Virus record (IMG/VR): IMGVR_UViG_3300032218_003909
Coordinates: 1-50,679 of that record
Source of the DNA: a virus
Lineage: Duplodnaviria > Caudoviricetes
DNA: 50,679 nt
Reading direction: 5' to 3' (one strand)
Part shown: one piece after another, positions 4,745-29,452 of the stretch
How positions within the stretch are numbered: the first letter of the stretch is position 1
Layout of the letters: every line of letters starts with the position of its first letter
The notes under the pieces: generated by a model
The model's database searches: none
The model's input: the letters and a program-made list of their open reading frames with translations, nothing else
What the model was told of the DNA's origin: nothing
Translations under genes and position numbers: made by a program

Positions 4745-5022
4745 ATTAGACTCCTGTCGTTTTCTTGGGCCTGTAGTTCAAAAAGCATTATAGCGCGATC
4801 AACAGCTTCTTGCAACGCTGGACTTCGATTACTCATCCGATAGATATCCATCCATGCAGCTTCACGATGAACTTCAGAAAGGGTCTGTTCGTAATTTTGA
4901 TAATGTTCTTTTGCTAAAGGAGATACCTCTTTACCGTCTACCTTCATGTAGGTACAACTAGAACCATTCTGAAAATCAAATCTAGTTATCTCAGTTGTTT
5001 TGTTTATGATTGTCATATTCAT
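4729..5022 (-). CDS. Hypothetical protein
   Basis: ~97-aa ORF overlapping neighbours in the operon; start at ATG 5022 or 5016. Confidence 0.6.
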   Translation of the reverse strand: MNMTIINKTTEITRFDFQNGSSCTYMKVDGKEVSPLAKEHYQNYEQTLSEVHREAAWMDIYRMSNRSPALQEAVDRAIMLFELQAQENDRSLMWHPV

Positions 5023-5666: not shown

Positions 5667-7111
5667 TCTGCCTTTTCTATAGTGTATGGATACTGAGCTT
5701 CAGTATAATATTTTTTACGTTCTGTGAGATGTCTTTTGGCAAATTTGCAATTGCTAGTGATATCCCAAATCAATACGTTGTCTTTGTCAGCGGCTTTTCT
5801 AATACCGCGCCCAATAGATTGTATAACCCTAACAAAGCTCTTTCCGGGTTCCACAAGAACCAGATTAAAGATCCGAGGAATATTAATCCCCACAGCGGCC
5901 ACACCGTAAGTCGCCACAATAACTTTGCTGTCGCTGATAGCAACTTCATCATACTCTGCTTTTCTATCTTTAGCTTTAGTAGATCCTGAGACAAATACTG
6001 CATCTGTTAACCTCTCTATTAATGCATTACCAGTTGCGATCCTATCGATCAATACCAATGTATTGCCTTTGTCCTTGATCTTGGTGATCATGCCGGCAAT
6101 GTAATCTAGTCTGCCAGCATCCTCAGTGAGGAAACGCAGTTCGCTTTGATAATCTTTGTATTCTCGATGATCCATCAACTGAACGATATTTACATGACAG
6201 TTGGCTAGATGCCCAGATTCTTGTAGTTCAGCAGCACTGAGTTGTCCTACTACCTGTCCAATGCTGCAAAAGATACTGTGCCTAGCGTAATCTTCTTTTG
6301 GTAGTGTGCCAGTGAGTCCCCATCGAATAGGCACTCTCGGGAAAACTATGCTGAGCAGACTTTTCAATGCTTCAGCCTTGGCGACATGCACTTCATCAAC
6401 CATCACACAGATTACGCCGTCAATGAATTCGCCAATAGGAATGTCTGCTTCCCCCTCTTTGCTGCCTTTCATGAGATTATTCAAACTTTGCCACGTACAT
6501 ATAGTATGCGTCCTACCAAACTCTTTTCGATCACCGAAAAACACACCTACATTCAAACCAAGATTAATGTAATCAGCTTCAGTTTGAGTGACCAAGCTCT
6601 TGTTGGGTACAATCACAATACTGCGGCCATACTTTTCGACACTTTTGCTTAGAGCAGCAGTCATGATTGTTTTGCCTGCGCCGGTAGCTACAATCTGTAC
6701 ACTCTGAGGATTGCTCAGAAAGTTGTTGATTATTCCTACCTGATAGTCACGGAATTTAATAGGTTTCCCTTGATCAACGTGACCTGATGGCCATGTACTG
6801 TCAGCAAACGTATCTTGATGAAACTCATCAAACTTGAAATCCGTGGTATAAGTACGCAGGTCCCTAAGATGAATATCATATCCTTCTTCAGCAATGATAG
6901 GCATAATTTCTGGCAGCAAATTAATATACGTGGTGCCGCTCAGTTGAAAGAAGCTTACCTTGCCATCCCATCTGCCCAATCGCACTGCTGGAGTATATCG
7001 AACTCCTGGAATTTCAAACTTGAACTTTTCAACCAGTCGCTTACGGGTCTTTAATTCTAGCCCGTCTATTTTACAGTTTATTTCATCATAAACGATTACG
7101 CTAGCTTGCAA
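5657..7111 (-). CDS. uvsW: SF2 DNA helicase, UvsW-like
   Basis: FRDYQ (Q motif), ATGAGKT, DEVH, LTGT, QSIGRGIR; N-terminal WDGK as in UvsW. TTG start at 7111 preferred. Confidence 0.9.
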   Translation of the reverse strand: MQASVIVYDEINCKIDGLELKTRKRLVEKFKFEIPGVRYTPAVRLGRWDGKVSFFQLSGTTYINLLPEIMPIIAEEGYDIHLRDLRTYTTDFKFDEFHQDTFADSTWPSGHVDQGKPIKFRDYQVGIINNFLSNPQSVQIVATGAGKTIMTAALSKSVEKYGRSIVIVPNKSLVTQTEADYINLGLNVGVFFGDRKEFGRTHTICTWQSLNNLMKGSKEGEADIPIGEFIDGVICVMVDEVHVAKAEALKSLLSIVFPRVPIRWGLTGTLPKEDYARHSIFCSIGQVVGQLSAAELQESGHLANCHVNIVQLMDHREYKDYQSELRFLTEDAGRLDYIAGMITKIKDKGNTLVLIDRIATGNALIERLTDAVFVSGSTKAKDRKAEYDEVAISDSKVIVATYGVAAVGINIPRIFNLVLVEPGKSFVRVIQSIGRGIRKAADKDNVLIWDITSNCKFAKRHLTERKKYYTEAQYPYTIEKADWQ

Positions 7112-8297
7112 TGTTTTGCACCTTTCTTGGTTTATTCGTACTGTTTGTAGCATACACTTGGCTGACGTTGAACACAACTCGTTCGGCTCTTTGAAACATG
7201 ATTTGTCTTTGACTGCCGAACGAAACAGCAGCTGCAGTGACCAAGATGGGAATAGAAGCAATGTCCAGCACTGGTTTAACTGCGTGAATATAACGAGTGT
7301 TTTCTGTGCGAGGATATTTATAATCTGTAGTAATGTTCAGCAAGTCTGACGAATAGCGTTGCTTTAGAAAGTCTGCCATATGCCCGTTAAGATCAGGCTC
7401 GTAGAAAACTGCGGGCCATCTTTCACATTGATCGATATAGTTAAGTACTTGTTCAAACTCATGCCATTGGCTAGGTCTGTTGGCATTTAACTTGAGTTCT
7501 CTGTTGCTTATCAAAAAATAAAAAGATGGGCCGTACTCAGCTACAATTGCATTTGATATATCGTCAGAGAGTGTGTAGCCTAAAATTGGTGAATAATCTA
7601 CTAATTTCAAAAGATTTGATTCGTTAAATCCACCTAGATTTTTCTCTACATAATCGTATAGCTGAGTTGGACAATTTTGAATTAATAACTTATTTCCTTC
7701 AAACATTAATCGAATTTGATAATTTTGGTTTTCTACAGCCAATATTTGTTCAAATAACACATGCACTTCGGGGTCGATCTCAAATGGTTCAGAGTCGAAT
7801 ACAAAACCTTTAGCCCACGTATATAACCAATTCAAATTATATTCAGTTAGATCAGCTTTCCATACTCTTGCATCTTTGTCCCAAAAACAGCGGCCGCGAC
7901 TTTCTTTACTGAACTTACGTAAGTCTTCGATTAATGAAGTACGATAAGGAAATTGAATCACCAACATATCATCTTGAATCTTTAAACAACGGCTGTAATC
8001 AATTTCACGAAGAGGCGTACGCCATTTAGGCGTTTTTACTGGTGATACGTCAATTCCCTTGGAAGACAATTGTCTTTCATATTTGAGTATAATTTTGCAG
8101 GCGAGTTCAGCTTGTCGAACAGTAAAAGCTGTGCTTGTTGCAATCTGATAAGCCATGTTTTCTATAACAGAAACATCATATCTGGCTAGACTAATGAGTT
8201 TGTAGTACTGTACGAATCCTGATCTATAGAAACCAGTTGCATCCTTATGGCCTGCAATAACTTCAATATAATCTTCTACAAAGGGAAACTGAATCAT
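7101..8297 (-). CDS. Hypothetical protein (398 aa)
   Basis: Long ORF coupled to the helicase. FPY...L...WD...W motif is HARP-like (weak). Confidence 0.75.
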   Translation of the reverse strand: MIQFPFVEDYIEVIAGHKDATGFYRSGFVQYYKLISLARYDVSVIENMAYQIATSTAFTVRQAELACKIILKYERQLSSKGIDVSPVKTPKWRTPLREIDYSRCLKIQDDMLVIQFPYRTSLIEDLRKFSKESRGRCFWDKDARVWKADLTEYNLNWLYTWAKGFVFDSEPFEIDPEVHVLFEQILAVENQNYQIRLMFEGNKLLIQNCPTQLYDYVEKNLGGFNESNLLKLVDYSPILGYTLSDDISNAIVAEYGPSFYFLISNRELKLNANRPSQWHEFEQVLNYIDQCERWPAVFYEPDLNGHMADFLKQRYSSDLLNITTDYKYPRTENTRYIHAVKPVLDIASIPILVTAAAVSFGSQRQIMFQRAERVVFNVSQVYATNSTNKPRKVQNIAS

Positions 8298-8312
8298 ATG
8301 TTGTTTATTAAG

Positions 8313-8347
8313 AAAAAAAGAGCCCTAGGAAAAAATACCCTAGGGCT
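8313..8347 (-). terminator. Intrinsic terminator
   Basis: 9-bp stem AGCCCTAGG/CCTAGGGCT (8321-8329, 8339-8347) followed on the minus strand by CTTTTTTT. Confidence 0.8.
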
Positions 8348-8440
8348 ATTTAAAGTTTGCAATTCAGGAGCTAGAGAGAATTGCAAATACCTACTCGCAT
8401 AATTGCTATGCGACATAGCATTCCGCTAAGCGGAATTCGG
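8313..8440 (-). ncRNA. Candidate small regulatory RNA (stacked hairpins ending in a terminator)
   Basis: Hairpins at 8420-8436, 8395-8413 (alternative 8404-8420) and 8356-8387 (10-bp stem, loop UCUCUAGCUCCU), then the terminator. Confidence 0.5.
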
Positions 8441-8476
8441 TTAAAATTCTATTGATTACGACAACAGCAATCTGTG

Positions 8477-8575
8477 TCACGGACGTATACCTTGCTCTGC
8501 ACCGTTGATGCACATTGTGTGAAAGAAATTGCTGCCATCAAGTATAATTTCATATTTGAAATTCTCAGAACTCAT
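8477..8575 (-). CDS. Possible 32-aa peptide
   Basis: MSSENFKYEIILDGSNFFHTMCINGAEQGIRP with AAGG and a TAAATA box upstream. An overlapping 34-aa frame (8449-8553) is an alternative. Confidence 0.3.
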   Translation of the reverse strand: MSSENFKYEIILDGSNFFHTMCINGAEQGIRP

Positions 8576-8599
8576 CGAAAAGAACCTTTAATATTTATT

Positions 8600-8911
8600 C
8601 TAGCCTACAGTGTATTCAACTAAATTTATTCCGGCTTCTTTAATAGCTAGCTCGCACACAGGACAAGGCCTAGCTAATTTTGGATTACCCTTTGAGTCGT
8701 ATCGTTCGATCTTGATCTTATAAGCATCGCCACTTTTGCACTTGACCAATGCACTGATTTCAGCGTGCAAGAACATTCGGTGAGGCATATTAGCACGAGC
8801 TGCATATCGAGCCTGAGTTGGATGAGTCTTGGTATAATGATTGCGTCCTATGCTCAAAATACGTCCTCGTCTATCGTAAACCGTCGCAATCAATTCTTGG
8901 CGTGTTTTCAT
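8600..8911 (-). CDS. Cytidine/deoxycytidylate deaminase-like Zn protein
   Basis: HAE...PCPVC motif, 103 aa. Confidence 0.85.
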   Translation of the reverse strand: MKTRQELIATVYDRRGRILSIGRNHYTKTHPTQARYAARANMPHRMFLHAEISALVKCKSGDAYKIKIERYDSKGNPKLARPCPVCELAIKEAGINLVEYTVG

Positions 8912-8922
8912 TAGAATCCTTC

Positions 8923-8956
8923 AGAATGAAGAGGCAGTGTAATACAACACTGCCTC
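8923..8956 (-). terminator. Hairpin/terminator after the AAA gene
   Basis: 10-bp stem GAGGCAGTGT/ACACTGCCTC followed by TTCATTCT on the minus strand. Confidence 0.6.
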
Positions 8957-8963
8957 AGTTCAA

Positions 8964-10001
8964 TCAAGCAGACTTCATGCAAGTAACACGAGCCATTTCT
9001 TTCCACTTCAGCGGAAAGGACTTGGCAAGGTCAGCAATCTTGACTGCCATACGCAGGCTCATTTCGCGCAGGTGTTCCTTGTTATCCGACATGAACTCAA
9101 TGATGTCATTCTGCTGAACATCATTAAAGTTATAATCATCAAACAACACGCCATCAGTGGCGATCTGCTTGATACGCAGGATCTTGTCGCGCATGGTGTC
9201 CAGAGTAAGGTCGAGGTAGTGACAACGACTCTGAAGAGCTTCCAAATGATCCTTGAGCTTTTGACTCTTGAAGCTGTCGAACTTGAGGTTAGTGATAAAC
9301 ACCACCGACCCACGGAACTCAAAGCTGTCAGGAATGCCCTCACGACGCAGAGTGCTGGATTCAGCTAACCAGCTGATCTTACGTTTTTTGCCCGAGTCCA
9401 GCGCACCCTTCAGAAGGTTCAGCGAAACGTCATCCATCAGAATGCTATCGCAGTCATCGAATACCACCATGCAGTTCGTATCGCTGAACTTGTACAAGGT
9501 CTGATACAAGCCGATAGGGGTCGCTGAGCCCTTGACCACTTCTGCACGCAAACGCTTGCCGCTGATTTGATCGAACAGACACGCCTTCTCAACAATTCGC
9601 TCCACACCAAAAGACTTACCGACTCCAGGAGGTCCACTGACGATAAGGGCACGGATATCACCGTTCACCGCAGCTTGCGTCATTTCATCGAGGATTTCAA
9701 ATCGCGAACGAATCCGTGACATAACTTCTTCATCCGATTCCATCACAGCTTCAGCTACTGCTTTTCCAACTTGATTAGACTTCACAATTACCTCACCGTC
9801 GTTTACAAATTCATAGCTACGAATACCAGCCACCTTGATGCGAATAGCATCAGCTCGACCAGGAAACTGACCGTCATTTACTACGGTCACAAAACCACCC
9901 TTGCGGCCCGGCTGGTACTGCTTTACCAACTCAAACACCATGCCTGAACATTCAGCGTTACGATAATTGCCATTAATGATGCGGATGAAAGATTTCGACA
10001 T
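8964..10001 (-). CDS. AAA+ ATPase (early gene)
   Basis: Walker A GPPGVGKS, Walker B VVFDDCD, sensor ITN, Arg finger ALQSR; GC-richer codon usage; GGAG RBS. Confidence 0.9.
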   Translation of the reverse strand: MSKSFIRIINGNYRNAECSGMVFELVKQYQPGRKGGFVTVVNDGQFPGRADAIRIKVAGIRSYEFVNDGEVIVKSNQVGKAVAEAVMESDEEVMSRIRSRFEILDEMTQAAVNGDIRALIVSGPPGVGKSFGVERIVEKACLFDQISGKRLRAEVVKGSATPIGLYQTLYKFSDTNCMVVFDDCDSILMDDVSLNLLKGALDSGKKRKISWLAESSTLRREGIPDSFEFRGSVVFITNLKFDSFKSQKLKDHLEALQSRCHYLDLTLDTMRDKILRIKQIATDGVLFDDYNFNDVQQNDIIEFMSDNKEHLREMSLRMAVKIADLAKSFPLKWKEMARVTCMKSA

Positions 10002-10035
10002 ATTTACTAGCTCCGTTCTTTGACGTTATGTGTGT

Positions 10036-10064
10036 ATTTTACAGACTCAACCACCGTTTGTCAA
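10036..10064 (-). promoter_or_regulatory. Sigma70-type early promoter of the AAA gene
   Basis: TTGACA-N17-TAAAAT; IHF-consensus AATCAATAACTTG at 10094-10106. Confidence 0.85.
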
Positions 10065-10108
10065 CCGTCTAGTGCCAACTAAAACTTGTGTAAAATCAAT
10101 AACTTGTA

Positions 10109-10627
10109 TTAAAACCACAAATCTTTTGTATTCAATGACTTACGAGCTAGCTTTAAGTAGGTATTGGCTCGACTGTGACGCATTTCGTCATCATCTAGTG
10201 CTGCCAGTGCATCAACCAACTGAGATTTGGGCATTCCGCACTCTGCGTAGCCTTCCATTAGCATGTTTAGATAACTGTTATCTGGATACGCATCCGGCTC
10301 GTTCTGCGCCATGTAATATATCCATGAATTGGACCTCAAACCAGCAGGATAATATCTACTCGGAGTTGGCACTAGCTTACGCTGGTAGTATCCAGGATAC
10401 CCTTCGAGGATGTCCAAGCTAGCTAAATCCTCATCAGAGATTTGCCATAGTGCACACCAGACTGATGACCCGCGTTCATAAACTACGTCAGCGTGATAAG
10501 CAAACCGTAGTCTATAATCGGATAGTCTAACTGCATTAATAAAAACAGCATCAGGACAACGATAGCGCATGCTGTCGATGTTAGTGTTCATGCCGTAGCC
10601 CAAATATAAATGAGTTTTAGTATTCAT
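10109..10627 (-). CDS. Gamma-glutamylcyclotransferase (AIG2/GGACT-like)
   Basis: YLGYGMN...LD.LEGYPGYY.R...W.YYM...P...YL..L.EGY; ATG at 10627. Confidence 0.85.
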   Translation of the reverse strand: MNTKTHLYLGYGMNTNIDSMRYRCPDAVFINAVRLSDYRLRFAYHADVVYERGSSVWCALWQISDEDLASLDILEGYPGYYQRKLVPTPSRYYPAGLRSNSWIYYMAQNEPDAYPDNSYLNMLMEGYAECGMPKSQLVDALAALDDDEMRHSRANTYLKLARKSLNTKDLWF

Positions 10628-10662
10628 TGTGTTATGGTAACACAATGAATACAATTTGTCAA
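10620..10662 (-). promoter_or_regulatory. Sigma70 promoter inside a 15-bp perfect inverted repeat; leaderless start
   Basis: TTGACA(10657-62)-N17-TACCAT(10634-39)-6 nt-ATG; repeat arms at 10620-10634 and 10638-10652. Confidence 0.7.
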
Positions 10663-10663: not shown

Positions 10664-11428
10664 TTAAAAGTAAGTGATATTAGACCGAGGGAAATAGCAT
10701 TCGTTCTGCACCAATGGCTTTATTTTGATTGTTTCAAGTACTGCAGATTTTCCTAAGCCCATCGCTAGGCTGTATACGAAATTTTGATTAGCCATCACTA
10801 AATCTGCGCCGTCTACAATATTGGCTAGTTCCAAAAAATCTCTGACTTGATAAAAAGGTATGTCTACGCCAGTGACAGCCAAGAAATCTTGATGTTCATC
10901 TACACTGCCTACGAATATACCATTCTTATCTAGTTGACCGCTGTGTGCCATTTCACGCCATACTGCGTCGCCGTTTGGGCAGCGATAACGAAAGGTTCTA
11001 CTAACCACAATAGAACGAACTGTGTTAGCATCAGCTGTTAACCAGGTAGTTTGATAATCACTTTCGTCGAACGGCAGTCTAAATGCTAAGTGATATGCTT
11101 GCACGTAGTTGCCCTCAAATCCTCGAAACAAAGTACCACGAAATCGATCTAGATCAATATCAGGTTCTGTGTCACCTTGCTGCCAAGTTCCGGTCTCTAA
11201 AATATAGTCCTGTCGATCGAGCAACGGCTTTAGCCATTTGTAATCCTGCAGAGTAAAACGACCTTTATGTGCGGTCGCCACTTCATCTGGTCGATAACCA
11301 TACTGACTCACACAGTTTTCAATGTTATTCAGCGCCACAAGAAATTTTCCTGGTTCCATTTTCTTTGCTAATGCTAATGAGTAGATCAGATCTCCTAAGG
11401 TACCTGAATGTCGATATGTTTTCATCAA
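10664..11428 (-). CDS. GT9-like glycosyltransferase
   Basis: G.LGDLIYSL N-terminus and FLELA.I..GA...NQ...LAMGLGK C-terminus, as in heptosyltransferase-fold enzymes. Confidence 0.65.
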   Translation of the reverse strand: MMKTYRHSGTLGDLIYSLALAKKMEPGKFLVALNNIENCVSQYGYRPDEVATAHKGRFTLQDYKWLKPLLDRQDYILETGTWQQGDTEPDIDLDRFRGTLFRGFEGNYVQAYHLAFRLPFDESDYQTTWLTADANTVRSIVVSRTFRYRCPNGDAVWREMAHSGQLDKNGIFVGSVDEHQDFLAVTGVDIPFYQVRDFLELANIVDGADLVMANQNFVYSLAMGLGKSAVLETIKIKPLVQNECYFPRSNITYF

Positions 11429-12324
11429 TCCCCCAAGGTTTTTAGTATAGCATCAGTGATCGCTTGAACATTCCAATTGGCAGTACAAGGAAATGTATCT
11501 TTGATACAGTTTAGTGCACGCACAGGTCTTAACTGATTATCATTACAACCGCGGCAGTCTTCTAATGTCTGGATAGCAGTACAATCACTGCCAAAATCTG
11601 ATTGTCCTTTGCGATAAGGTAAAATAATCTCTGGCCGAAGATGCGTTAGCAAAGCAATAATGTGAGTCTTGCTGGCTGCTGCGCACCAATATGGACCTGA
11701 GTCGATTCCGACAAAACAACGAGAATGATCCATAAGATACTTCAATTGTTGCATGTTGTAGATATTTCTAGCATCAAAAATCAACGGATGATCTACATAT
11801 AAATCAGATTCTGTACCTACACACACAATATTAAAATCAGTGCGTACAGCAAAGCATCTGCTGAATACTTCCAACCAAGTATCAGTACTGATATTCTTTG
11901 CTCCCCAATGCCAGTTTCTCATATGAACTACAATAAACTTATCGGCAAGCTCAGTAAGATCAGAATCCACTAAAACTTGATCTTCTGCAGTTGAAAACAG
12001 TTCTACTGAATGATCATGCAGATTATGTCCAAACGCTCGATAATGATAGTTTTCAACATAATGTTTAGTTGGATTCGTCTCATATGCATCATCTAGATTA
12101 ATGTACATTTGATAATCATTGATATCTGGAGGACTATTCACATGCCACATATACCTGATATGCGGATTGTTGCGATAGACTTCCGGAACACCTGTTAAAA
12201 CATCTATAATTGCGTTGTCTTTATAAGCATTCTTCAGTTCGCGAACTATGCTAGTACTCATAATTACGTCACCGACCGCAGCTTCTCGACGTAATAATAT
12301 ACTAATAGGTTTTTCTAATTTCAC
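11425..12324 (-). CDS. GT9 ADP-heptose:LPS heptosyltransferase-like
   Basis: R..AVGDVIMST, NNPHI, FVGIDSGP..AAA motifs. Confidence 0.85.
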   Translation of the reverse strand: MKLEKPISILLRREAAVGDVIMSTSIVRELKNAYKDNAIIDVLTGVPEVYRNNPHIRYMWHVNSPPDINDYQMYINLDDAYETNPTKHYVENYHYRAFGHNLHDHSVELFSTAEDQVLVDSDLTELADKFIVVHMRNWHWGAKNISTDTWLEVFSRCFAVRTDFNIVCVGTESDLYVDHPLIFDARNIYNMQQLKYLMDHSRCFVGIDSGPYWCAAASKTHIIALLTHLRPEIILPYRKGQSDFGSDCTAIQTLEDCRGCNDNQLRPVRALNCIKDTFPCTANWNVQAITDAILKTLGD

Positions 12325-13526
12325 TGTATCTCCATCCTAGGAAAGTATTTCATAAATTTGTCATTGGGATTATTTCGTCGGCCACGAATTTGTCGTTTGA
12401 TTTCCAAGAACAAATTCCATGCCAGTGGTATAAACAAGATCTTTTTATAATTGTAATCAGTTAAATAATCACTTGATACTATTTGTATGTCAACTCCTGG
12501 GCACCACTTATTTTGTTTCAACGGATTGTCATCGATGATCCAATCAATGTCCAGCTTGCCAGCAGTGATCAAGGTCATTCCTTTTGCTGCAGCACCATAG
12601 CCAATCACTGTATAACCCTGTACTCGATGTTCTGCAATTACTTGCTGAATATCTTGTAGAGTTTTATCAACTCCGCTAGCCCAATTGGTATATGTTGCTG
12701 CAGTTTGCAAGCCTTCATTTCTCTCTACATCTAGAATGTTGTCGAGATTATATTGATCACAACATTCGTGTGCCAATACAAAAATGTAACTTGTACCATG
12801 GATCGGTGTCTTGACCACATCGATCAAGCATAGTCCTGCACGTTCGGCTAGTCTTCGCATACTTTCAGCATTATAGAAACTGATGTGTTCGTGATAGATA
12901 GTATCAAATTCACCATTTTGAATCATTTCAGCCTGGCTAGTGCTGATAAACATCCTACCATTAGGTTTTAGATATTTCTTTACTAACTTCAAGTAACTCA
13001 AAGGATCTGGTATGTGAGCAAAAGCGTTTTGACTAGTGATAATATCAAAACGTTCATGCAATTTGTCAGCAGTGGTGGTGTTCCAGTATCCCAAAGTAAC
13101 ATTGTGATTTGTGCTGCTAACAGGAAAAATATTTTCTGCTGGGTCTACGCCATAAGTTTGAAATCCAAGTTCCTTAAATGCATCAAGCTGACTGCCATCA
13201 TTGCATCCAATATCCAACACTGTCTCACCAGAGTAATCTAGCTTTTCTAAACAGAAGTTAGCATACCATTTCATATAGCGAAGATATGTCGCACTAGTAC
13301 CAGATACATACAAATAATTCTTATAAAGAATATCAGGATTAACTACATGAGTGAGCTGTAAATGATTGCATGCAGTGCAACGATTTACAGTTAACGGATA
13401 ACTGTTGTAGCTATCATCTTTGCTATTACGAAGATTATTAGCTGGAGCTTGAATGCCTAAATCTAACGTGAGACTGAGGTCATTATTGCCGCAGGCTACA
13501 CATTCTTTTAACTTTACACAATCCAT
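12321..13526 (-). CDS. NDP-sugar C-methyltransferase
   Basis: Zn-binding CxxC...CxxC, LDIGCNDG, FDTIYHEH, GYGAAAKG. Confidence 0.9.
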   Translation of the reverse strand: MDCVKLKECVACGNNDLSLTLDLGIQAPANNLRNSKDDSYNSYPLTVNRCTACNHLQLTHVVNPDILYKNYLYVSGTSATYLRYMKWYANFCLEKLDYSGETVLDIGCNDGSQLDAFKELGFQTYGVDPAENIFPVSSTNHNVTLGYWNTTTADKLHERFDIITSQNAFAHIPDPLSYLKLVKKYLKPNGRMFISTSQAEMIQNGEFDTIYHEHISFYNAESMRRLAERAGLCLIDVVKTPIHGTSYIFVLAHECCDQYNLDNILDVERNEGLQTAATYTNWASGVDKTLQDIQQVIAEHRVQGYTVIGYGAAAKGMTLITAGKLDIDWIIDDNPLKQNKWCPGVDIQIVSSDYLTDYNYKKILFIPLAWNLFLEIKRQIRGRRNNPNDKFMKYFPRMEIQ

Positions 13527-13527
13527 T

Positions 13528-14247
13528 TTAATTCCTTATTGCACCGCCATTTGGAGCGATAAAACCCTCTACGCCCAACAGTGGCACTTCGGTGACTAGT
13601 TCTGTCGGAAGAAATTTATACAGTACATGTTCAATATCAGCGTATCCGCCAACGGCTACTCGTTCTCCGATATAAGCTAGACTTTGATTGTAAACATCAA
13701 TCACTGTAGGCGTATTAACAGCTGGCCAGGACCACAATCTAGCCATATACTGCAAGTCAATGCCAGTCAGTTTAAAAGGAAATTGACTTGAATGCTTTGG
13801 GCCGATCAAAATACGATCTTTTTTCTGTTCGTAAAGTTCTAGATTGAAATCATCATTCAACAAGTAACGACCACTCATTTTGTGGATTCGATCTACGTCT
13901 GAAAAGTCGCCGTCATCCCAGCATTGCTGTAAAACGCGAGCAAAGCACATTATCTCAGTAGTGTTCTTTACCACATCCCAATTATCGCTCTGATAGATAG
14001 CTTGAACATCAGGATCATCTGTGAAATCAAACATAATATCTGAAGCCACATCCAATGCGTCCGTCTGTGCTTGATTGAGTGGCACACCTGTGCATTCCAT
14101 TAATATAATCTGGCAGCCAGGCACACGAGTTCGCAAACTGTTAATAGTAGCCAATGTTTGCTTTAGTCTATCAGTAGAATTGTATACGCCAAATTTGCTG
14201 TTGATGGCGCTAGTAACTATAAATGCGTGTTTTATTTTCGTAACCAA
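13528..14247 (-). CDS. Hypothetical protein, possible glycosyltransferase
   Basis: IVTSAI...RL.QTL.TI.S...KMSGRY.L; probable TTG start at 14247; glycan-locus context. Confidence 0.6.
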   Translation of the reverse strand: MVTKIKHAFIVTSAINSKFGVYNSTDRLKQTLATINSLRTRVPGCQIILMECTGVPLNQAQTDALDVASDIMFDFTDDPDVQAIYQSDNWDVVKNTTEIMCFARVLQQCWDDGDFSDVDRIHKMSGRYLLNDDFNLELYEQKKDRILIGPKHSSQFPFKLTGIDLQYMARLWSWPAVNTPTVIDVYNQSLAYIGERVAVGGYADIEHVLYKFLPTELVTEVPLLGVEGFIAPNGGAIRN

Positions 14248-15266
14248 CGTTCGTTCTCCAATGTCCAATGCACCATATCGCGGATGCGTTCGCTAAGTTT
14301 AATCTCTGGTTTCCAACCTAAGCTGGCTAGTAATCCACCGTCTAATGCATATCGTAGATCATGACCTGGACGACTGGTATGAAAATCAGTCATTTCATAT
14401 ATCAATTCTTTATCTTGAGCATCAGCAATCATCTGCGCCAGTGTAAGATTATCAATCTCCTCAGTGCCTACCAAATTAAACTTAGGACAATGAGCGCCAC
14501 CAAAATCATTAGTATGCTTGTAATCTTCTAGATTAAGAATAAACATTAATCCCTCTGCAACATCTCGTGCGTGTATGTACATACGAGTACCTGCGACAGT
14601 ACGTGTGGGGTCAGCATGAATAATTACCTTTTCTCCATCACGAACTTTTTGAATTGTAGCAGGAATGAACTTTTCAGGATGCTGTCGTTCACCAAACACG
14701 TTCATAGTGTGTGTGACGATTATAGGCATCTTATAAGTATTTTCATATGCTACACAGAATTCTTCTGCTGCTGCTTTGCTAGCACTATAGGGATTAGTGC
14801 TGTTATAGCGATCATATTCTTTATAGCTTACACCTCGTGGTGCTACACCAAAAATTTCATCGGTGCTGAAGTATACAAATTTCTCTAGGTTCGGCAAATG
14901 CTTACGAGCATAGTCTAGCGTATTCACTGTACCCACTACGTTGTCTTGGACAAACTCCATTGGATAAGTGATACTGCGATCAACATGACTGCCAGCAGCT
15001 AGATGTAATACAATATCAACGTGTCCGATGTCCTGTACAATTTGACTATTAATTTCAGCTTTTAAATCATGAAAGATGATACGTATGCGACGACTGACCA
15101 TCACAGGGTCATGGTCAATTAACATATCATGTAGTCTATTCAAATTACCAGAAATATCTAGCCTATCTAGACTAACAATCTTCCAATCCGTATCTCTTAA
15201 TATTTTATCTATAACATGGTGCGCGATAAATCCTGCGCCGCCAGTGATTAGGACAGTTTTTGACAT
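14232..15266 (-). CDS. rfbB: dTDP-glucose 4,6-dehydratase-like
   Basis: TGGAGFI, HLAAGSHVDRSI, STDE, PYSASK, RPGHDLRY. Confidence 0.9.
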   Translation of the reverse strand: MSKTVLITGGAGFIAHHVIDKILRDTDWKIVSLDRLDISGNLNRLHDMLIDHDPVMVSRRIRIIFHDLKAEINSQIVQDIGHVDIVLHLAAGSHVDRSITYPMEFVQDNVVGTVNTLDYARKHLPNLEKFVYFSTDEIFGVAPRGVSYKEYDRYNSTNPYSASKAAAEEFCVAYENTYKMPIIVTHTMNVFGERQHPEKFIPATIQKVRDGEKVIIHADPTRTVAGTRMYIHARDVAEGLMFILNLEDYKHTNDFGGAHCPKFNLVGTEEIDNLTLAQMIADAQDKELIYEMTDFHTSRPGHDLRYALDGGLLASLGWKPEIKLSERIRDMVHWTLENERWLRK

Positions 15267-15321
15267 AAATCCTCATATATAATCGAATGTCCAATATTTA
15301 TTGTGACATACATGTCGAGCT

Positions 15322-15395
15322 AGATTATTGCAAGGCGTTAGATCTGTCAAGCGGTTTAATAACCGCTTGACTACTACCAGAACTAAGTATACAGT
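15322..15395. promoter_or_regulatory. Divergent promoter pair with -35 boxes in an 11-bp inverted repeat
   Basis: GTCAAGCGGTT-taat-AACCGCTTGAC (15346-15371). Minus: TTGACA-N17-TAATCT. Plus: TTGACT-N17-TACAGT. Confidence 0.6.
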
Positions 15396-15423
15396 GATCA
15401 ATCAATTATGAGTGTCAATTAAT

Positions 15424-16743
15424 ATGAAAGAAATTTTAGAACAAGTAAAGACTTACATAGAACAACAACAAAATGAAAAAGAATGGGTAGCAGGACGCGA
15501 TTTCGTGAATTACGCCGGGCCTTATTTCAACTCTGATGAATATGTTGCAGCAGTTGAAAGCCTTTTGAAAGGCTGGTTAGTTTTAGGTACCGATGGTCTT
15601 AAATTTGAACGTAAATTTTCAAGGTTATTGGGGCATGCTAGCGGCGTTCTTACTAACAGTGGCAGTAGCAGCAATCTATTAATGATGGCAGCTTTGACTA
15701 GTAAGCGAGGATATAATCTTTTACCTGGAACAAAAGTTCTCACTCCGATTGCAGGATTTCCAACTACACTAAATCCTACCTTGCAAGTGGGCTTCACGCC
15801 AGTGTTTGTTGACATTGAATTGGACACGTTAAACCTGGACCTAGATCATGTTGAACGTATCCTTGCATTTAATTCTGACATTCGTGTGATAACATTCGCG
15901 CACGTACTTGGAAATCCACCTGCAATGGACAAGCTGATGGATCTAGTCCGCGCACATGATTTAATCTTGCTTGAAGATTGTTGTGATGCATTGGGCAGTA
16001 CGTATGATAATAAACCATTGGGCAGTTTTGGCTTAATGTCTAGCTGTAGTTTTTATCCGGCCCATCACATGACAATGGGTGAGGGCGGCTTCGTTGCTAC
16101 CAGCGATCACACATATGAGACTATTTTACGTAATCTTCGAGAATGGGGACGAGGCTGTTATTGTGCTGGGCCAGAAGCCAATAAGTTAAAATGTGGTACT
16201 TGCAAAGAACGATTTAAAAACTGGATTCCCACATTGCCTAATGAAATCTTTGACCACAAGTACGTGTATGATGAAATAGGTTTTAATCTTAAACCTGTTG
16301 AACTACAAGCTAGCATGGGCTTAGTTCAATTAAACAAACTCGATGAAATACATTCGTTACGTCGCAGAAATTATAGATTGTTATTTGATATCTATCAAAA
16401 ATATGAACAGTTCTTTCATCTTCCCCGAGCGACAAGTAACAGTGATCCGAGTTGGTTTGCTTTTCCTCTTACTATCAGAAATGATGCACCGTTCACTCGT
16501 TCCGAACTTGTAGATTTCTTAGAAGAAAATCTGATTCAAACTCGCCCATATTTTGCTGGCAATATTATGTTGCAACCTGCGTACAGCCATCTGATGGATC
16601 CCGACAAGGCTAAAACAGGATTTCCCAATGCTACTTATGCAATGACTCACACGTTTTTCCATGGCACTAGTCCTGTAATCACACCTGGACAGATTGATTA
16701 TATTAAGCATGTGGTAGATAAGTTTATAAAAGAACGTATTTAA
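15424..16743 (+). CDS. rfbH: NDP-4-keto-6-deoxyglucose 3-dehydrase (RfbH/E1, DegT family)
   Basis: NSGSSSNLL, GFPTT, EDCCDALGS, SFYPAHH (His in place of the PLP Lys), WGRGCYC Cys motif, DHKY.Y. Confidence 0.9.
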   Translation: MKEILEQVKTYIEQQQNEKEWVAGRDFVNYAGPYFNSDEYVAAVESLLKGWLVLGTDGLKFERKFSRLLGHASGVLTNSGSSSNLLMMAALTSKRGYNLLPGTKVLTPIAGFPTTLNPTLQVGFTPVFVDIELDTLNLDLDHVERILAFNSDIRVITFAHVLGNPPAMDKLMDLVRAHDLILLEDCCDALGSTYDNKPLGSFGLMSSCSFYPAHHMTMGEGGFVATSDHTYETILRNLREWGRGCYCAGPEANKLKCGTCKERFKNWIPTLPNEIFDHKYVYDEIGFNLKPVELQASMGLVQLNKLDEIHSLRRRNYRLLFDIYQKYEQFFHLPRATSNSDPSWFAFPLTIRNDAPFTRSELVDFLEENLIQTRPYFAGNIMLQPAYSHLMDPDKAKTGFPNATYAMTHTFFHGTSPVITPGQIDYIKHVVDKFIKERI

Positions 16744-16780
16744 ATTCTATAAATATTCAACATTTGATTTTCGAGGTTTC

Positions 16781-17437
16781 ATGTACGCTATAGCAACAAT
16801 GCACGACAGTCAGTATAATGAACTGGCTTCAATCACCTATAATCAAAATAAAATACCGTATTGTCGAAAACATGGCTATAAATTGTTTGCCAAAGTAGAT
16901 AAATTCAGCGAAGGAAAAAAAATTTATTTTGATAAGATGCGTCATATTTTAGATGTATTGCGTTCTAATCCTGATATTCAATGGCTATGGTGGCTAGATT
17001 GTGATGCTGTGATTACAAATTTTGATATAGCTTTAAGCCAGTGGTGCGACGATGATTTTCACATTATTATCTGTTTAGATAGATATAACCTGAATAATGG
17101 AAGTTTTTTTATTCGTAATAGCGCTGAAGCAATTGGTTATATTGAACATATTATACGATTAGAAGATCAGTATCTGGATACTGCATGGCCAGAACAACAA
17201 CCAATGATTGATTTAATTGATCAATATTCAGAAATAATGAAATTTCATCCCCAAAGAGATTTCAATAGTTATGATTATGACTATTATTATAAAGATCACG
17301 GAAACACACATGATTGGGATCTATTCGGCTACAATGGAAATTGGAAAGAAGGCGATTTTGTATGTCACTATCCAGGAATAAAATACGAAGAAAAAATACG
17401 ACTAGCAAATGATATAGTAAAAAAGGTAATAACATGA
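16781..17437 (+). CDS. GT34 (GMA12/MNN10)-like glycosyltransferase
   Basis: YC.KHGY, WWLDCDA, LNNGSF.IRN, EQ, GDFVCHYPG; TATAAATA at 16748-16755. Confidence 0.85.
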   Translation: MYAIATMHDSQYNELASITYNQNKIPYCRKHGYKLFAKVDKFSEGKKIYFDKMRHILDVLRSNPDIQWLWWLDCDAVITNFDIALSQWCDDDFHIIICLDRYNLNNGSFFIRNSAEAIGYIEHIIRLEDQYLDTAWPEQQPMIDLIDQYSEIMKFHPQRDFNSYDYDYYYKDHGNTHDWDLFGYNGNWKEGDFVCHYPGIKYEEKIRLANDIVKKVIT

Positions 17438-18186
17438 CAATATTCACTGAAGCATTTCATCAGTTCAAGCATTGGGCAGAAGTGCGTCGTACAGAACTAA
17501 CACCGATAATAGGTGAACGAGCAAATTATACGGTTTTATACGGTCCATATAAAGACATGATCATATGGCCTAAGTGGCTGTGGAGCGATGGTGATTATGT
17601 TAACAAACTCCTCGGCCTTTATGAAAACGAATTGTATCCTGCTATCGAATCAGAACTTGCAAAATCACCGGACCTGATCATAAATGTTGGCAGTGCAGAG
17701 GGCTTTCATGGACTCGGCTGTGCATTACGTACAAATGTCTGTACAATATTAATCGACACTGATGCAAACGTACTTGAGATCGCTAAGGAAAACAGTTTAA
17801 TTAACAATCTTGATAACGTAGAATTCGATACCACCAGTTCAGCAGAACACATAAATTCTTTACTTGAAGGCAGTAAAAATCCTTTTATCATCATGGACTG
17901 CGAAGGCGCCGAACGTGAATTGATTAACCTAGATATTGCACCAAATTTAAAGAAAGCAGCAATGATTATTGAAACTCATGACTGCTTTATCGCTGACTTG
18001 ACTGATTATCTAACCGATATTCTGCGATCCACACATGATGTTACGATAATCTGCCAAGGCGCAAAAAATCCATATCTAGAACCGATTAATGATCTATGTG
18101 ATATTGATAAAATGATAATTTGCAGTGAGAATCGACCAATTACTAGTTGCTGGATATACGCAGTACCAAAAAAGGAAACTATATGA
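17434..18186 (+). CDS. SAM-dependent methyltransferase (FkbM-like)
   Basis: LGLYE.EL, INVGSAEG, IMDCEGAE, IETHD. Confidence 0.8.
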   Translation: MTIFTEAFHQFKHWAEVRRTELTPIIGERANYTVLYGPYKDMIIWPKWLWSDGDYVNKLLGLYENELYPAIESELAKSPDLIINVGSAEGFHGLGCALRTNVCTILIDTDANVLEIAKENSLINNLDNVEFDTTSSAEHINSLLEGSKNPFIIMDCEGAERELINLDIAPNLKKAAMIIETHDCFIADLTDYLTDILRSTHDVTIICQGAKNPYLEPINDLCDIDKMIICSENRPITSCWIYAVPKKETI

Positions 18187-19061
18187 CTGTATACGACTGT
18201 TGCATGTTTTTTAATGAAAACGATCTATATGAAATACGTTTAAATCAACATTGGGATTTTATAGATAAATTCGTTGTTGTTGAGGCAGGAGAAACACATA
18301 CTGGTCTGAAGAAACCTCTGAATTTTGACCATTCTCGGTTTAAGCCATGGGCTAGTAAAATAGAATATCGAAGTTTTAATAGCTTTGAAGAGGCTATGAA
18401 ACAGCATCCTGAACTTATAGATCAACACACCCTCATGGATAGAGGACCAAATAAGTCGTCTGCTGATTGGTCTAGAGATCATTTTCAAGGAAACTACATG
18501 TTGAAAGTTCTTCGAGATCTACAAGCAAAAAACGATGATATTGTTTTTATGTCTTGTTGCGACGAAATTTTAAGAAAACAAGCGTTTGATGCATGCAAAG
18601 ATATGCTACAAAAACATCCGGAGGGTGATGAGCTAATTTTTATGTTTAGACTTTGGCTCTATGCATATAAGTTTAATTTGCTGAGTAAAAGCTGTCATGA
18701 ATCTGATCCAACAGCAATGTTGGCTAAGTTTTCTGTTTTTGACAAAGCATTGCCTGCCACGCTGAGAGAATTTAGAATTTGTAATAGATTGATAGAAAAC
18801 GCAGGCTGGCATTTTACTTATTTGGACAACAGTGGTGGCCTGCAGGTGCTTGCTAAGCATCGTAGTTGGGCACATTCTAAAGATATCATAGATGGAGAAA
18901 AAGTAAAATTTGATTATGATGAAGAACATTTAGCAGATGCGGTTAATCATGTTATTAAGGGATACAATGTAAAATTAGTAGATTTATTGCCGCATACGCA
19001 TCCACAATATATACTAGATAATCTAGAGAAATTTAAAGACTACATATTGGAATCGGAGTAA
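18183..19061 (+). CDS. GT17-like glycosyltransferase
   Basis: YDCCMFFNE, FVVVE..ETHTG..K, SCCDEI, GWHFTY. Confidence 0.85.
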   Translation: MTVYDCCMFFNENDLYEIRLNQHWDFIDKFVVVEAGETHTGLKKPLNFDHSRFKPWASKIEYRSFNSFEEAMKQHPELIDQHTLMDRGPNKSSADWSRDHFQGNYMLKVLRDLQAKNDDIVFMSCCDEILRKQAFDACKDMLQKHPEGDELIFMFRLWLYAYKFNLLSKSCHESDPTAMLAKFSVFDKALPATLREFRICNRLIENAGWHFTYLDNSGGLQVLAKHRSWAHSKDIIDGEKVKFDYDEEHLADAVNHVIKGYNVKLVDLLPHTHPQYILDNLEKFKDYILESE

Positions 19062-19068
19062 AATATTC

Positions 19069-19872
19069 ATGAATATAAAAGAACATCGAATGCTTGATAT
19101 CCTCAAAAGAGGAAAACAAGAATACGGCTATGTCGCTGTTAAAGCTGAGTTTGAGGCAGAAGGCACCAGAACTGATGAACTATTAAGGCTAATTGATCTT
19201 ACCAAACGTGCAGATCTAAAGTTTGCGCTTAAGATCGGTGGCTGCGAAGCTATGCGAGATTTGATGGAAGCTAAGCAGCTTGGAGTAGAATATGTTATCG
19301 CACCAATGGTAGAAACAGACTATGCATTGTGGAAATTCATTGACGCAAAGAATAAAGTCTATGACGAAGATGATCGTCGAGATGTCAAGTTTTTAACCAA
19401 TCTTGAAACAATCACCGGCTATAATAACCTTGTTAGCTTGATTGCCAAGGCTAAGATAGACAATGGCTTAGACGGATTGGTGTTTGGTCGTGTAGATTTT
19501 GTGATGAGCATGGGTCTAAACGGTCGTGAAGACATCAATCGTGAAGATATCACCGAAATGGCGAAAATTGTAGCTGGCACATGTTCGGCTGCTGGCTTAG
19601 AAATGGTGATGGGAGGTGGAATTTCTACCGATGCACTTTCAGCAGTGCGTGCGGTCAGACAAGTTCACTTAAATCGCTATGAGACGCGCAAGATAGTATT
19701 TGATGGCAATGCAGCAAACTTGCCGGACGCTGAACGAGCACTATTGTCAGCAGTTGAATTTGAATTGCTTTGGCTAAAGAATAAGCGGGACTATTATGGC
19801 AATATTTTCCGTGAAGATAATAAGCGCATAGACATGCTTGAAGCTCGTTGGAAAGCTAAGATCGAAAGTTAA
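19069..19872 (+). CDS. HpcH/HpaI aldolase/citrate-lyase family protein
   Basis: K.EFEAEG, KIGGCEA, APMVET, NLET, FGRVDF, GGG. Confidence 0.8.
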   Translation: MNIKEHRMLDILKRGKQEYGYVAVKAEFEAEGTRTDELLRLIDLTKRADLKFALKIGGCEAMRDLMEAKQLGVEYVIAPMVETDYALWKFIDAKNKVYDEDDRRDVKFLTNLETITGYNNLVSLIAKAKIDNGLDGLVFGRVDFVMSMGLNGREDINREDITEMAKIVAGTCSAAGLEMVMGGGISTDALSAVRAVRQVHLNRYETRKIVFDGNAANLPDAERALLSAVEFELLWLKNKRDYYGNIFREDNKRIDMLEARWKAKIES

Positions 19873-20881
19873 TACCGCTCTGCATCAGTGAAGAAATTAA
19901 TTTTTTCCAAAATGATGCAGAATTCTCAAACCCTTTCTTGACAAATTGAAGATCAACGGGCAGTATGAGATTTATCTCACTGCTCGTGTTTTTCTTATCA
20001 TGCGTCAGCGCAGCTATTGCAAGATTGATATCTATAACCACATCTTTGTATAAAGAGTAATTGGTTATAAGAACATTATGCATATCTAAGAATCTTTGTT
20101 TCTCAATCATGCCTTCACCAAAAGCAAATAGATTTGCAGCGTCCATTCCCATGCTCACAGCAATACCATGAGGAATTTCAAAGTTAGTCGCACTTTCTAT
20201 AGCATGACCGATGCAATGCCCGTAATTTAAAATATTACGTATACCTTTGTCGAATTCATCTATTTCAATAAACTTTTTTTTGATTTGTAAAGTCTGATAC
20301 AGATGGTAATCTAGATCATCGCGGATAGTGTCACTGTCTACTAATTTTCCGTCTATTAGATAGAGTTTAATGATCTCTCCTATACCTGACCGAATATCTT
20401 TGTCTTCAAGAGTATTAAGAAACTTATTGCAAATTAGTACACTTGAGGGCGGTGTAAACGAACCCAGTAGATTTTTGTACTGACCAAAGTTAATGCTACT
20501 CTTACTTCCAATGCAACTATCAGCCTGAGCCAACAGTGTTGTAGGAACAAAGTGCCACCTAACACCTCGCATAAAGTTGTTTGCAATAAAACAGGTTATA
20601 TCTTGAATGATGCCTCCGCCTATTGCTACTAATGTGCTGCTGCGTTTTAGATTCTGCGCTATAAGCTGTTCGATTACCGGCACTATGCCAAGATAGCTTT
20701 TGTTTTCTTCGTTAGCATCAATAAGTACATATGGTTTGTCAACTGTGCCAAGTAATTCAAAAACATTGCGATCGATAATATAATGTGTACCTAGTGAGTA
20801 TAACGAATTGGAATCGATCAATTGATCATCGAATACAACCTGATATGAGCCACTGTGACTTTGAATCTCAAAATTACGCAC
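19856..20881 (-). CDS. 3-dehydroquinate synthase-like sugar-phosphate cyclase
   Basis: GGGIIQD, PTTLLAQADS.IG.K, KNLLG.F, LNYGH..GHAIE, PHG.AV; GGAGG RBS before GTG at 20881. Confidence 0.9.
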   Translation of the reverse strand: MRNFEIQSHSGSYQVVFDDQLIDSNSLYSLGTHYIIDRNVFELLGTVDKPYVLIDANEENKSYLGIVPVIEQLIAQNLKRSSTLVAIGGGIIQDITCFIANNFMRGVRWHFVPTTLLAQADSCIGSKSSINFGQYKNLLGSFTPPSSVLICNKFLNTLEDKDIRSGIGEIIKLYLIDGKLVDSDTIRDDLDYHLYQTLQIKKKFIEIDEFDKGIRNILNYGHCIGHAIESATNFEIPHGIAVSMGMDAANLFAFGEGMIEKQRFLDMHNVLITNYSLYKDVVIDINLAIAALTHDKKNTSSEINLILPVDLQFVKKGFENSASFWKKLISSLMQSGINFRS

Positions 20882-21569
20882 GAGTAAATCCTCCATCAAT
20901 AGCAATATTTTGTCCTGATATATATGTATTCTGTTCACTGCCCAACCAACATACAAAATTTGCAACTTCTTCAACAGAAGCCAGTCTATTGATAGGTACT
21001 TGAGCTAGAATCTGTGCGATACCCGATGGTCCTAGGTTACGTTGAGTCATTTCTGTATTAATGAATCCTGGTGCTACACTATTAGCTAAAATACCTTGTG
21101 CAGCATATTCATTTGCTATAGCTAGCGTCATTCCGTCTAGCGCAAATTTACTGGCACTATAGCTGCCTCTGCCCGAGCGACTGATCTTTCCCCATATTGA
21201 ACTGATATTAACAATGCGACCCCAGGCTGTTTGAGCCATATGCGGCAAAACAGCCTGACATAAACGAAACGGAGCGTAAACGTTTATCTTTTGTATTTTT
21301 TGAAAATCGTCAGGATCTATTTCACAGAAAGGTGAGATTTTGTTTATGCCGGCGTTATTGATTAGCATATCAATATTCATTTGGGCGACTAAGTTACAAA
21401 GCGTATCCAGTTGTGTGTCGTCAGATAGATCACATTGAATGTATTCATTTACATAATCTGGTTTAATATCAGTGGTTGCTACGCCTATAACATATGAATC
21501 TGATGCGTATGCAGTGGCGATAGCTTTGCCAATTCCACGACTGACGCCAGTTATTAGAACTCGTTTCAT
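20874..21569 (-). CDS. Short-chain dehydrogenase/reductase (FabG-like)
   Basis: TG.SRGIG, NNAG, YSASK, PGFI.T, DGG. Confidence 0.9.
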   Translation of the reverse strand: MKRVLITGVSRGIGKAIATAYASDSYVIGVATTDIKPDYVNEYIQCDLSDDTQLDTLCNLVAQMNIDMLINNAGINKISPFCEIDPDDFQKIQKINVYAPFRLCQAVLPHMAQTAWGRIVNISSIWGKISRSGRGSYSASKFALDGMTLAIANEYAAQGILANSVAPGFINTEMTQRNLGPSGIAQILAQVPINRLASVEEVANFVCWLGSEQNTYISGQNIAIDGGFTRA

Positions 21570-21674
21570 TTGACCTCTCGTCTAGAATATTTAATGGTCA
21601 AATAATAGCATATAAATATTCGACTATCAAATATTTTTCATGTATACTATTGCCACTTATTAGAGGATAAATTA

Positions 21675-23453: not shown

Positions 23454-24271
23454 AAATAGCTGTTTTGGGTGCACGAGGATTTATAGGACGTAATATAAGT
23501 TTGGATCTATCACAAGATCACGTTGTTCATTCAATAACACGAGATATATTAGATTTGCTAGATCCAACAGAAGTGCGTAGTCATTTCATGAGGCAAAAAT
23601 ATGATGTGGTAATCAATGCTGCAGCAACAATGACTACTGATAGTTCATTGCATGACAGCCGAAATAATCTAGGTTTGTTTATGAATATTCACGCATGTCG
23701 AGGACAATTTGGAAAATTTATAAACTTAGGTTCTGGCGCAGAATTCGATCGAACACGAAATATAGATAACGCAAACGAGTGTGAGATATTCGATGTCATT
23801 CCGTCAGATAGCTATGGATTTGGTCAGAATATAAAGAGCCGAATCTGCTATGCTACTGATAATTTTTACACCATACGCATATTCAACTGCTTTGGTTCTG
23901 GAGAAATGCCCACTCGATTGTTTGCACGATATCTCAATAAGTCACAACCATTTGTTATTACTAACGATAGATACTTTGATTATTTCAGTATTCAAGACTT
24001 ATGTACAGTGGTAAGACACTGCGCCGAGACTTCTTGGACAATAAAAGACGTAAATGCAGTCTATCAAGAAAAAATACGCATCAGTGAAGCACTGTCTAGA
24101 TTCTGTGAAATTAATACTCTGGAAAAAGACTTTATAGTTGGTTCTAAATCAGAAAATAATTATACAGGAAACGCTTATTTACTATCATCTGTGAATCTAC
24201 CGTTGACAGGAATAGCTGAAGGCTTTAAATTGTACGGAAATTTTTCGATTAAAAAGGATATCGCACTGTGA
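23450..24271 (+). CDS. NAD-dependent sugar epimerase/reductase
   Basis: LGARGFIG, GSGAEFD, R.FNCFG. Confidence 0.85.
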   Translation: MKIAVLGARGFIGRNISLDLSQDHVVHSITRDILDLLDPTEVRSHFMRQKYDVVINAAATMTTDSSLHDSRNNLGLFMNIHACRGQFGKFINLGSGAEFDRTRNIDNANECEIFDVIPSDSYGFGQNIKSRICYATDNFYTIRIFNCFGSGEMPTRLFARYLNKSQPFVITNDRYFDYFSIQDLCTVVRHCAETSWTIKDVNAVYQEKIRISEALSRFCEINTLEKDFIVGSKSENNYTGNAYLLSSVNLPLTGIAEGFKLYGNFSIKKDIAL

Positions 24272-26571: not shown

Positions 26572-26583
26572 AACGAGAAATAT

Positions 26584-27549: not shown

Positions 27550-27552
27550 CAC

Positions 27553-29415: not shown

Positions 29416-29452
29416 GAGTAAGTAATAAAAATCGCAAGTTAATGAGGCTTCA

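Follow-up and report, generated by a model that had tools for sequence, protein, structure and literature searches.

The tail hairpin of an AAA+ ATPase operon in large phages likely pairs with the ribosome-binding site of the operon's first gene

The DNA analyzed here, called the window, is a 50.7-kb fragment (50,679 nt) of a large uncultured phage that carries tail, helicase and sugar-modifying genes and 13 tRNAs. The results presented here reveal that a minus-strand operon headed by an AAA+ ATPase gene ends in a hairpin whose loop complements the ATPase ribosome-binding site (RBS), and that loop and RBS covary among related phages. The two sites have been kept matched through many sequence changes and, therefore, the tail hairpin loop and the AAA RBS likely pair as RNA. 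Comparison of the sequences makes it probable that the 3' end of the operon, intact or clipped, pairs with the RBS, which would block ribosome loading and exert a delayed negative self-control of the ATPase.

Results

Operon organization and the loop-to-RBS match in the window

The operon runs on the minus strand from its promoter through the AAA ATPase gene, a hairpin (8956-8931), a deaminase-like gene, a TAAATA box and approximately 280 non-coding bases to the seed hairpin and the terminator (Table 1). The seed hairpin has stem arms at 8356-8365 and 8378-8387 and a loop at 8366-8377. The seed CUAGCUCC (minus strand, 8374-8367) is the exact complement of GGAGCUAG (minus strand, 10014-10007), 1633 nt away, and is fully unpaired in the predicted ensemble. 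The fold of 8310-8445 has a z-score of -5.7, equaled by 0 of 200 shuffles. The first-pass annotation had described a 10-bp hairpin with a minus-strand loop and a terminator behind it, and an exact 8-nt complement in the AAA gene's Shine-Dalgarno (SD) region 1.6 kb away; the coordinates check out and the complement matches to the base. The TAAATA box that it had reported near the hairpin lies at 8597-8592, one base from where it was first placed. A further TAAATA is found at 8352-8347, ahead of the terminator stem.

Table 1. Features of the AAA ATPase operon in the window, listed from promoter to terminator
Feature	Position	Strand	Basis or remark
Sigma70-type early promoter of the AAA operon, TTGACA-17-TAAAAT	10036..10064	-	11/12 consensus
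Target of the loop, RBS GGAGCUAG of the AAA gene; comprises the SD core and four bases of spacer	10007..10014	-	Covaries with the loop
AAA+ ATPase, 345 aa, heads the operon; T4-like nrdC.10 homolog	8964..10001	-	PF00004 above cut-off, phrog_1250
10-bp hairpin directly after the AAA stop, weak U-tract	8931..8956	-	Paired changes in L001, hairpin kept
Cargo gene, dCMP/cytidine-deaminase-like, 103 aa	8600..8911	-	phrog_174; PF00383 just under cut-off
TAAATA late-type box	8592..8597	-	Sequence; box kept in L001
bL12 C-terminal-domain-like gene remnant, 32 codons	8477..8575	-	Local alignment to L001 5424-5816
Three short overlapping hairpins	8395..8436	-	Lineage-specific, outside the conserved element
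Seed hairpin, 10-bp stem and 12-nt pyrimidine-rich loop	8356..8387	-	Anti-RBS seed at 8367-8374
Rho-independent terminator closing the operon	8312..8347	-	Stem 8347-8321 plus U-tract; position kept in relatives

By itself the 8-mer is not striking, with 0.76 copies expected on both strands of the window, and the concern was raised at the outset that eight nucleotides can match by chance. That concern is fair for the 8-mer alone, but chance is all but excluded because the element is conserved and covaries in relatives. The loop-to-RBS observation is thus confirmed as real and far beyond chance. Two checks proposed in the first-pass annotation also bear it out. When the start regions of the window were ranked for pairing with the loop, the AAA start came first of 73, and a scan for the same RBS elsewhere found GGAGCTA in only two copies, at the AAA RBS and opposite the loop. 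Binding of loop to leader is predicted at -14.7 kcal/mol, versus -5.8 kcal/mol for what we take to be the 16S-tail motif. The minimum-energy nested fold of the 1718-nt transcript pairs the RBS with the seed, although long-range folds are unreliable. The plus strand of the hairpin folds as well as the minus strand.

The target protein shows full-length homology to the nrdC.10-like phage ATPases, including their P-loop AAA+ core, and is 32-37% identical to the products of genes annotated nrdC.10 (tblastn). Its predicted model (pLDDT 83) matched generic AAA+ folds and singled out no family. In 56 of 57 representatives a -10 hexamer lies less than 70 nt from the AAA start, at a median distance of 32 nt. 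The hairpin behind the AAA stop codon is possibly a partial terminator or a stabiliser. Among the first 80 loci, a deaminase-like cargo gene occupies this operon position only in the window and in its close relative L001. One contig of run X1 is identical to the window over 7900-10300 without a gap and is possibly the window's own source.

The first-pass annotation had also described stacked hairpins ending in the terminator. These are present, but the upstream ones (8395-8436) are not conserved, and the 5' part of the candidate RNA (8392-8440) falls outside the conserved element. In L001 a bL12-like gene is intact behind the same TAAATA (130 aa, L001:5424-5816). In the window, the upstream hairpins occupy the place of the missing rest of this gene; L001 has the gene there and lacks the hairpins. 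The bL12-like protein matched a PF00542 cluster in the Atlas structure search (TM 0.72), and had no match in Pfam or PHROG. A 17-mer from 8395-8436 has matches in four viral contigs, in unrelated contexts.

Other features of the window were recorded. In most relatives a sigma70 promoter overlaps the U-tract, but in the window the 398-aa gene that lies below the terminator has none (8298-8320). A perfect 15-bp inverted repeat (10620-10652) overlaps a sigma70-type promoter (10662-10634) at the start of a gamma-glutamyl cyclotransferase-like gene. A large sugar-nucleotide and surface-modification block extends over 10664-30397 and 43802-50052, and five paralogs matching phrog_11975 were noted as well. 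The 13 tRNA genes lie between 32142 and 50649.

Conservation of the element at the operon terminator

When the stem of the window or the region around it served as a DNA query, no homolog was returned because the stem sequence varies; homologs were reached through the AAA protein. The first set comprised the best 80 of 597 viral and the best 80 of 557 metagenome ATPase loci plus the window, 161 in all. Thirty-five were dropped (31 without a called terminator, mostly on cut contigs, 3 without an RBS and 1 with a cut gene), and the remaining 126 collapsed to 107 distinct loci. In a second set of 126 loci, 58 were kept, 35 were removed as repeats of the first set, and 34 were distinct.

A GCUCC-type seed is located within 65 nt before the operon terminator in 94 of the 107 distinct loci of the first set; by more stringent criteria, a hairpin enclosing the seed forms in 87 of the 94. 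The conserved element consists of a variable stem, the anti-RBS loop and then the operon terminator, and the segment from stem to terminator end is about 75 nt long (median, 73). In the first set it lies on the AAA strand directly before the operon terminator, whatever cargo intervenes. The seed is found from 9 to approximately 3500 nt past the AAA stop, at less than 110 nt in 17 of 48 representatives, and a terminator separates gene and element in only 3 of 94 loci. The 13 loci without the pattern include one variant that it missed (L151) and two in another register (L045 and L141), and the seed is present in the dropped loci L002, L080 and L155 too. An extra hairpin upstream of the element is not enriched (9/48 versus 5.9). 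No loop-plus-terminator element was found within 4-5 kb downstream of the nrdC.10 homolog in RB14 or PA5oct.

The stem sequence varies freely among loci. Among the 20 hairpins most like that of the window, both partners have changed at 8 of 10 stem pairs; the nine inner pairs contain 0 unpaired cells of 180 and 8 G·U pairs. Kinship can beat the shuffle control in this comparison; pairing drops to 20-37% when the arms are slid. The 20-hairpin count is preferred to a count of 60 G·U versus 2 A·C, which is biased because the program that located the stems admits G·U and tolerates a single mismatch. The stem covariation and the G·U wobbles on the sense strand therefore indicate, from sequence comparison, that the hairpin is an RNA structure on the AAA strand.

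Several loci carry further motifs. In Pseudomonas phage PA5oct (L229), the RBS of the nrdC.10 homolog sits inside a mini-hairpin (4985-5003), and a GGA-loop hairpin past the stop (6165-6190) has a 3' arm complementary to the gene's own RBS; the latter hairpin may resemble a CsrA/RsmA site. In the 3' part of the AAA operon, upstream of the seed hairpin or terminator, L016, L033 and L047 share a second motif (~CCCTGC-GTGTG...GGCAATGTCAATAAGTCC), for which Rfam gave no match at gathering score. In L103, L056 and L057 another pyrimidine-rich stretch that resembles an anti-RBS adjoins the hairpin on its 5' side; in L103 this stretch is a better fit than the loop to the RBS variant of that locus.

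Covariation of loop and RBS

A motif-blind test revealed that the 65 nt before the terminator bind their own RBS at -16.4 kcal/mol and foreign RBSs at -14.1 kcal/mol (permutation p 1/20001, n = 107). The difference persists after clustering at 90% (n = 57; p 1/20001) and at 80% (n = 27; p 105/20001). Swapping the partners in 37 pairs with disjoint tree paths favoured the own partner in 25 cases and the swapped one in 5 (p at most 3.2e-4), on a FastTree tree with some unsupported branches. At the second position after GGAG, U in the RBS occurs with A in the loop in 58 of 93 loci and C with G in 24; at the fourth, 42 of 93 loci have A:U and 25 have G:C. Watson-Crick pairs number 83 of 93 at +2 (48.9 expected) and 72 of 93 at +4 (39.1 expected). 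On independent pairs, +4 is supported (6.8 versus 0.1 of 9; median p 0.016), +2 is not significant (2 versus 0 of 5) and +5 has no support. The RBS lacks GGAGC in 14 loci, and the GCUCC loop is missing as well in 10 of these; on independent pairs, presence or absence of loop and RBS motif gave p 0.5.

The permutation result was replicated in the 34 loci of the second set (p 1/20001); the pair test was not, with tree-independent swaps at 7 versus 4 of 14 (p 0.55). New matching sequences occur in L130, L167, L299, L312, L404 and L406. Among the second-set loci, the match is fully different in L299 (GCCAACUCC with GGAGUUGGC) and L406 (UGUUGCUCCA with UGGAGCAACA), and in L292 it joins UGUGGAUUAAC with GUUAAUCCACA, upstream of the SD, a register shift also seen in L045 and L141. 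Control segments downstream and upstream were flat (p 0.40 and 0.73), as were cargo-gene starts (p 0.95), where GGAGCYA was found at 0 of 27. The reverse-complement control gave p 0.04. Independent variation of loop and RBS in related phages, which the first-pass annotation had named as refuting, was not seen.

These data bear on whether the match is chance or a feature of the DNA or the opposite strand, such as an inverted repeat, a leftover opposite-strand RBS or a protein site in a GGA loop. The expected number of 8-mer copies, the equal folding of the plus strand and the value of the reverse-complement control are in keeping with such an origin. However, the stem covaries, the loop covaries with the RBS, the G·U wobbles would turn into A·C mismatches if the other strand were the one that folds, and only 19 of 48 representatives have a start codon following on the opposite strand. 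A chance or DNA-level explanation is largely refuted and retains only a very slight probability.

Specificity for the AAA start

Start regions were ranked genome-wide over the full stretches of seven large relatives. The AAA start ranked first of 517 for its own loop in G004 and among the top few in G002, G007 and G008; in G002 it was 5th of 597, the top match being the element's own opposite strand. It fell outside the top 12 of 529 in G003 and outside the top 7 of 121 in G001. In each large relative a few other early genes have 8-11-bp matches (G002:69790, G003:271483 and G008:99769), as would be expected if a general anti-Shine-Dalgarno RNA lowered the output of many early genes of the phage or the host, with the AAA gene as one target. 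However, start regions with at least 8 bp are no more frequent in genomes scored with their own loop than in G005, where the element was not found by a filter that is weak, since it missed known copies in G004 and the window. In addition, homologs of the other matching early genes do not track the loop variant, and cargo starts avoid the match. A general damping RNA is therefore quite improbable, and the selected partner is, as judged from these comparisons, the gene that heads the operon.

Loss of the loop in the closest relative

L001 and L098 (95% AAA identity) have an identical RBS and have kept the stem arms and terminator, and the loop is missing (L001:5817-5895). The loop was apparently lost by deletion between short repeats that the stem arms contain. 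No substitute anti-RBS site was found in these loci, the best candidate reaching -10.6 versus -14.7 kcal/mol. Since they keep the RBS without the loop, at least one lineage can do without the element. These loci represent a natural null for the element.

The TAAATA box and a separate late RNA

TAAATA is read here, by our assumption, as a T4-type late promoter. It is approximately 3-fold enriched before genes in three relatives (37/514 versus 12, 54/595 versus 17 and 44/528 versus 13) and, on this count, behaves like a promoter motif in the clade. The first-pass annotation had proposed a late antisense RNA that shuts off an early gene. The part of this proposal concerning the match has held, since the match is of functional grade and AAA-specific; a late-promoter sRNA as the rule has not. 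In 2 of 48 representatives the 150 nt upstream of the seed contain TAAATA, with 3.1 expected by shuffle, so that a conserved late promoter directly upstream of the element is not found. It occurs within 400 nt in 4 of 48 and anywhere between AAA stop and seed in only 10 of 94 loci. The many seeds located close behind the AAA stop, and the rarity of a terminator between gene and element, likewise argue against a separate late transcript, started at TAAATA 8597-8592, that ends in the hairpin and shuts off AAA in trans. In the window, moreover, the box precedes the gene remnant and probably served the decayed bL12-like gene. The evidence on the other side is the enrichment of TAAATA, the retention of the box in L001, five of 94 loci in which a TAAATA 28-49 nt ahead of the seed is so positioned that a discrete RNA could begin there, and L008, in which a T6 terminator at the AAA stop splits the gene from a matched element 576 nt later. 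L008 and these five loci favour trans action in some lineages, and a late transcript over the hairpin is possible in this genome and in the five. As a general account, a separate late transcript is unlikely.

Discussion

The preferred reading is that the operon tail masks the RBS of the operon's own first gene. Transcription by host sigma70 polymerase would start at approximately 10030, cross the AAA gene and its cargo and end at 8312. The RBS would be free before the tail is made, allowing an early burst of ATPase from each transcript. In the finished tail, the unpaired loop would nucleate a helix of 8 bp (8-11 bp in relatives) that covers both SD core and spacer; 30S binding would be blocked, and decay may follow. 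Repression, as the sign of the effect, is read from this geometry only. Two further points against masking are that the duplex in the window has only 8 bp and that the hairpin at 8931-8956 may stop transcripts early. Within the masking reading, a released 3' fragment of about 75 nt that acts in trans, like CarZ, has a slightly better than even chance, and fold-back inside one molecule, like icaR, a slightly less than even one. The RNase E motif RN|WUU was found 5' of the RNA in 16 of 45 cases versus 10.7 by shuffle, and in 28 of 45 at a control position. AGTTT precedes the element in 16 of 48 representatives versus 4.0 and is often formed with a stop codon.

Alternatively, the pairing could be real and not repressive, closing mRNA ends for stability or ribosome recycling, or coupling the leader to 3'-end decay or termination. 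Covariation shows pairing and not its sign, the element always adjoins the terminator, and the nested fold of the transcript, unreliable as such long-range folds are, pairs RBS with seed. However, the helix covers the SD core, a geometry that represses in icaR and CarZ (PMC3868564, PMC7398697), and the loop-leader energy is below that of the 16S-tail motif. A non-repressive role is therefore improbable.

An extension of the masking reading can be put forward tentatively. The element might act throughout the clade as a transcription-length timer, in which the mRNA is translated until polymerase reaches the tail, which seals the first RBS; the ATPase dose per transcript would therefore be set by operon length. 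The operon tail past the AAA stop measures 0.01-3.5 kb. Some lineages would have rewired the module to a stand-alone late sRNA, with TAAATA just upstream, or dropped it. If true, large phages would possess a feedback device that needs no protein and for which compensatory, shifted-register and knockout variants exist in nature.

The element would be a compact (~75 nt), retargetable self-limiting module, and its target, an uncharacterised nrdC.10-type ATPase, is marked as a protein whose dose or timing these phages must limit. The T4-like nrdC.10 AAA ATPase (PMC1524935) is homologous to the target protein at the identity given above; in RB14 and PA5oct the element was not seen in the 4-5 kb downstream. 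Rfam 15 at gathering score, which includes C4-type antisense RNAs, identified only the 13 tRNAs in the window and returned 0 matches for 12 related loci. No paper on the element was found in the literature; supplements 3-6 of PMC10690425 contain no match, and its remaining supplements may list the motif.

Comparison with known systems

The phage antisense RNAs OOP, aQ and sas overlap their targets. Like the element described here, lambda OOP, aQ and the lambda/P22-type sas are phage RNAs that pair with phage mRNA and lower expression (PMC12197685). They are opposite-strand antisense RNAs of temperate phages, whereas the present element is on the same strand, 1.6 kb downstream, and uses a short seed.

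Closer parallels are found in bacteria. In CarZ and OppZ of Vibrio cholerae (Hoyos et al. 2020, PMC7398697; PMC9438474), an element at the 3' end of an operon pairs with a translation start of its own operon, and CarZ targets the first gene, like the phage element (PMC7398697). Both are 3'UTR-derived autoregulatory sRNAs, with release by RNase E and dependence on Hfq. The phage element shares the position at the operon 3' end with a common terminator (94 of 107 loci), co-transcription being deduced from the arrangement, and by computation, through covariation, the pairing with its own operon's start. It differs in being phage-encoded, in displaying its seed in a hairpin loop and in having no demonstrated sequence relation to CarZ or OppZ, and the evidence for it is covariation. 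In icaR mRNA of Staphylococcus aureus, the 3' UTR carries a short C-rich anti-SD motif that pairs with the SD of the same mRNA; the report leaves cis versus trans action undecided (PMC3868564). The window likewise has an anti-SD motif in the 3' UTR of the same mRNA, provided that the hairpin at 8931-8956 does not split the transcript. As described there, icaR is one bacterial gene with a duplex cut by RNase III (PMC3868564), whereas the phage element has a loop-displayed seed at the end of an operon of variable length, covaries across about 100 loci and sometimes uses a shifted register.

By analogy, the phage element appears to work like CarZ/OppZ and icaR, and membership in either is not claimed. 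Control of an RBS by the tail of its own transcript was known before, so far from a few bacterial cases proven gene by gene. As comparative evidence for an mRNA interaction over a kilobase range, the clade-wide compensatory series reported here is unusually strong, and the phage element, conserved and covarying, extends that kind of control.
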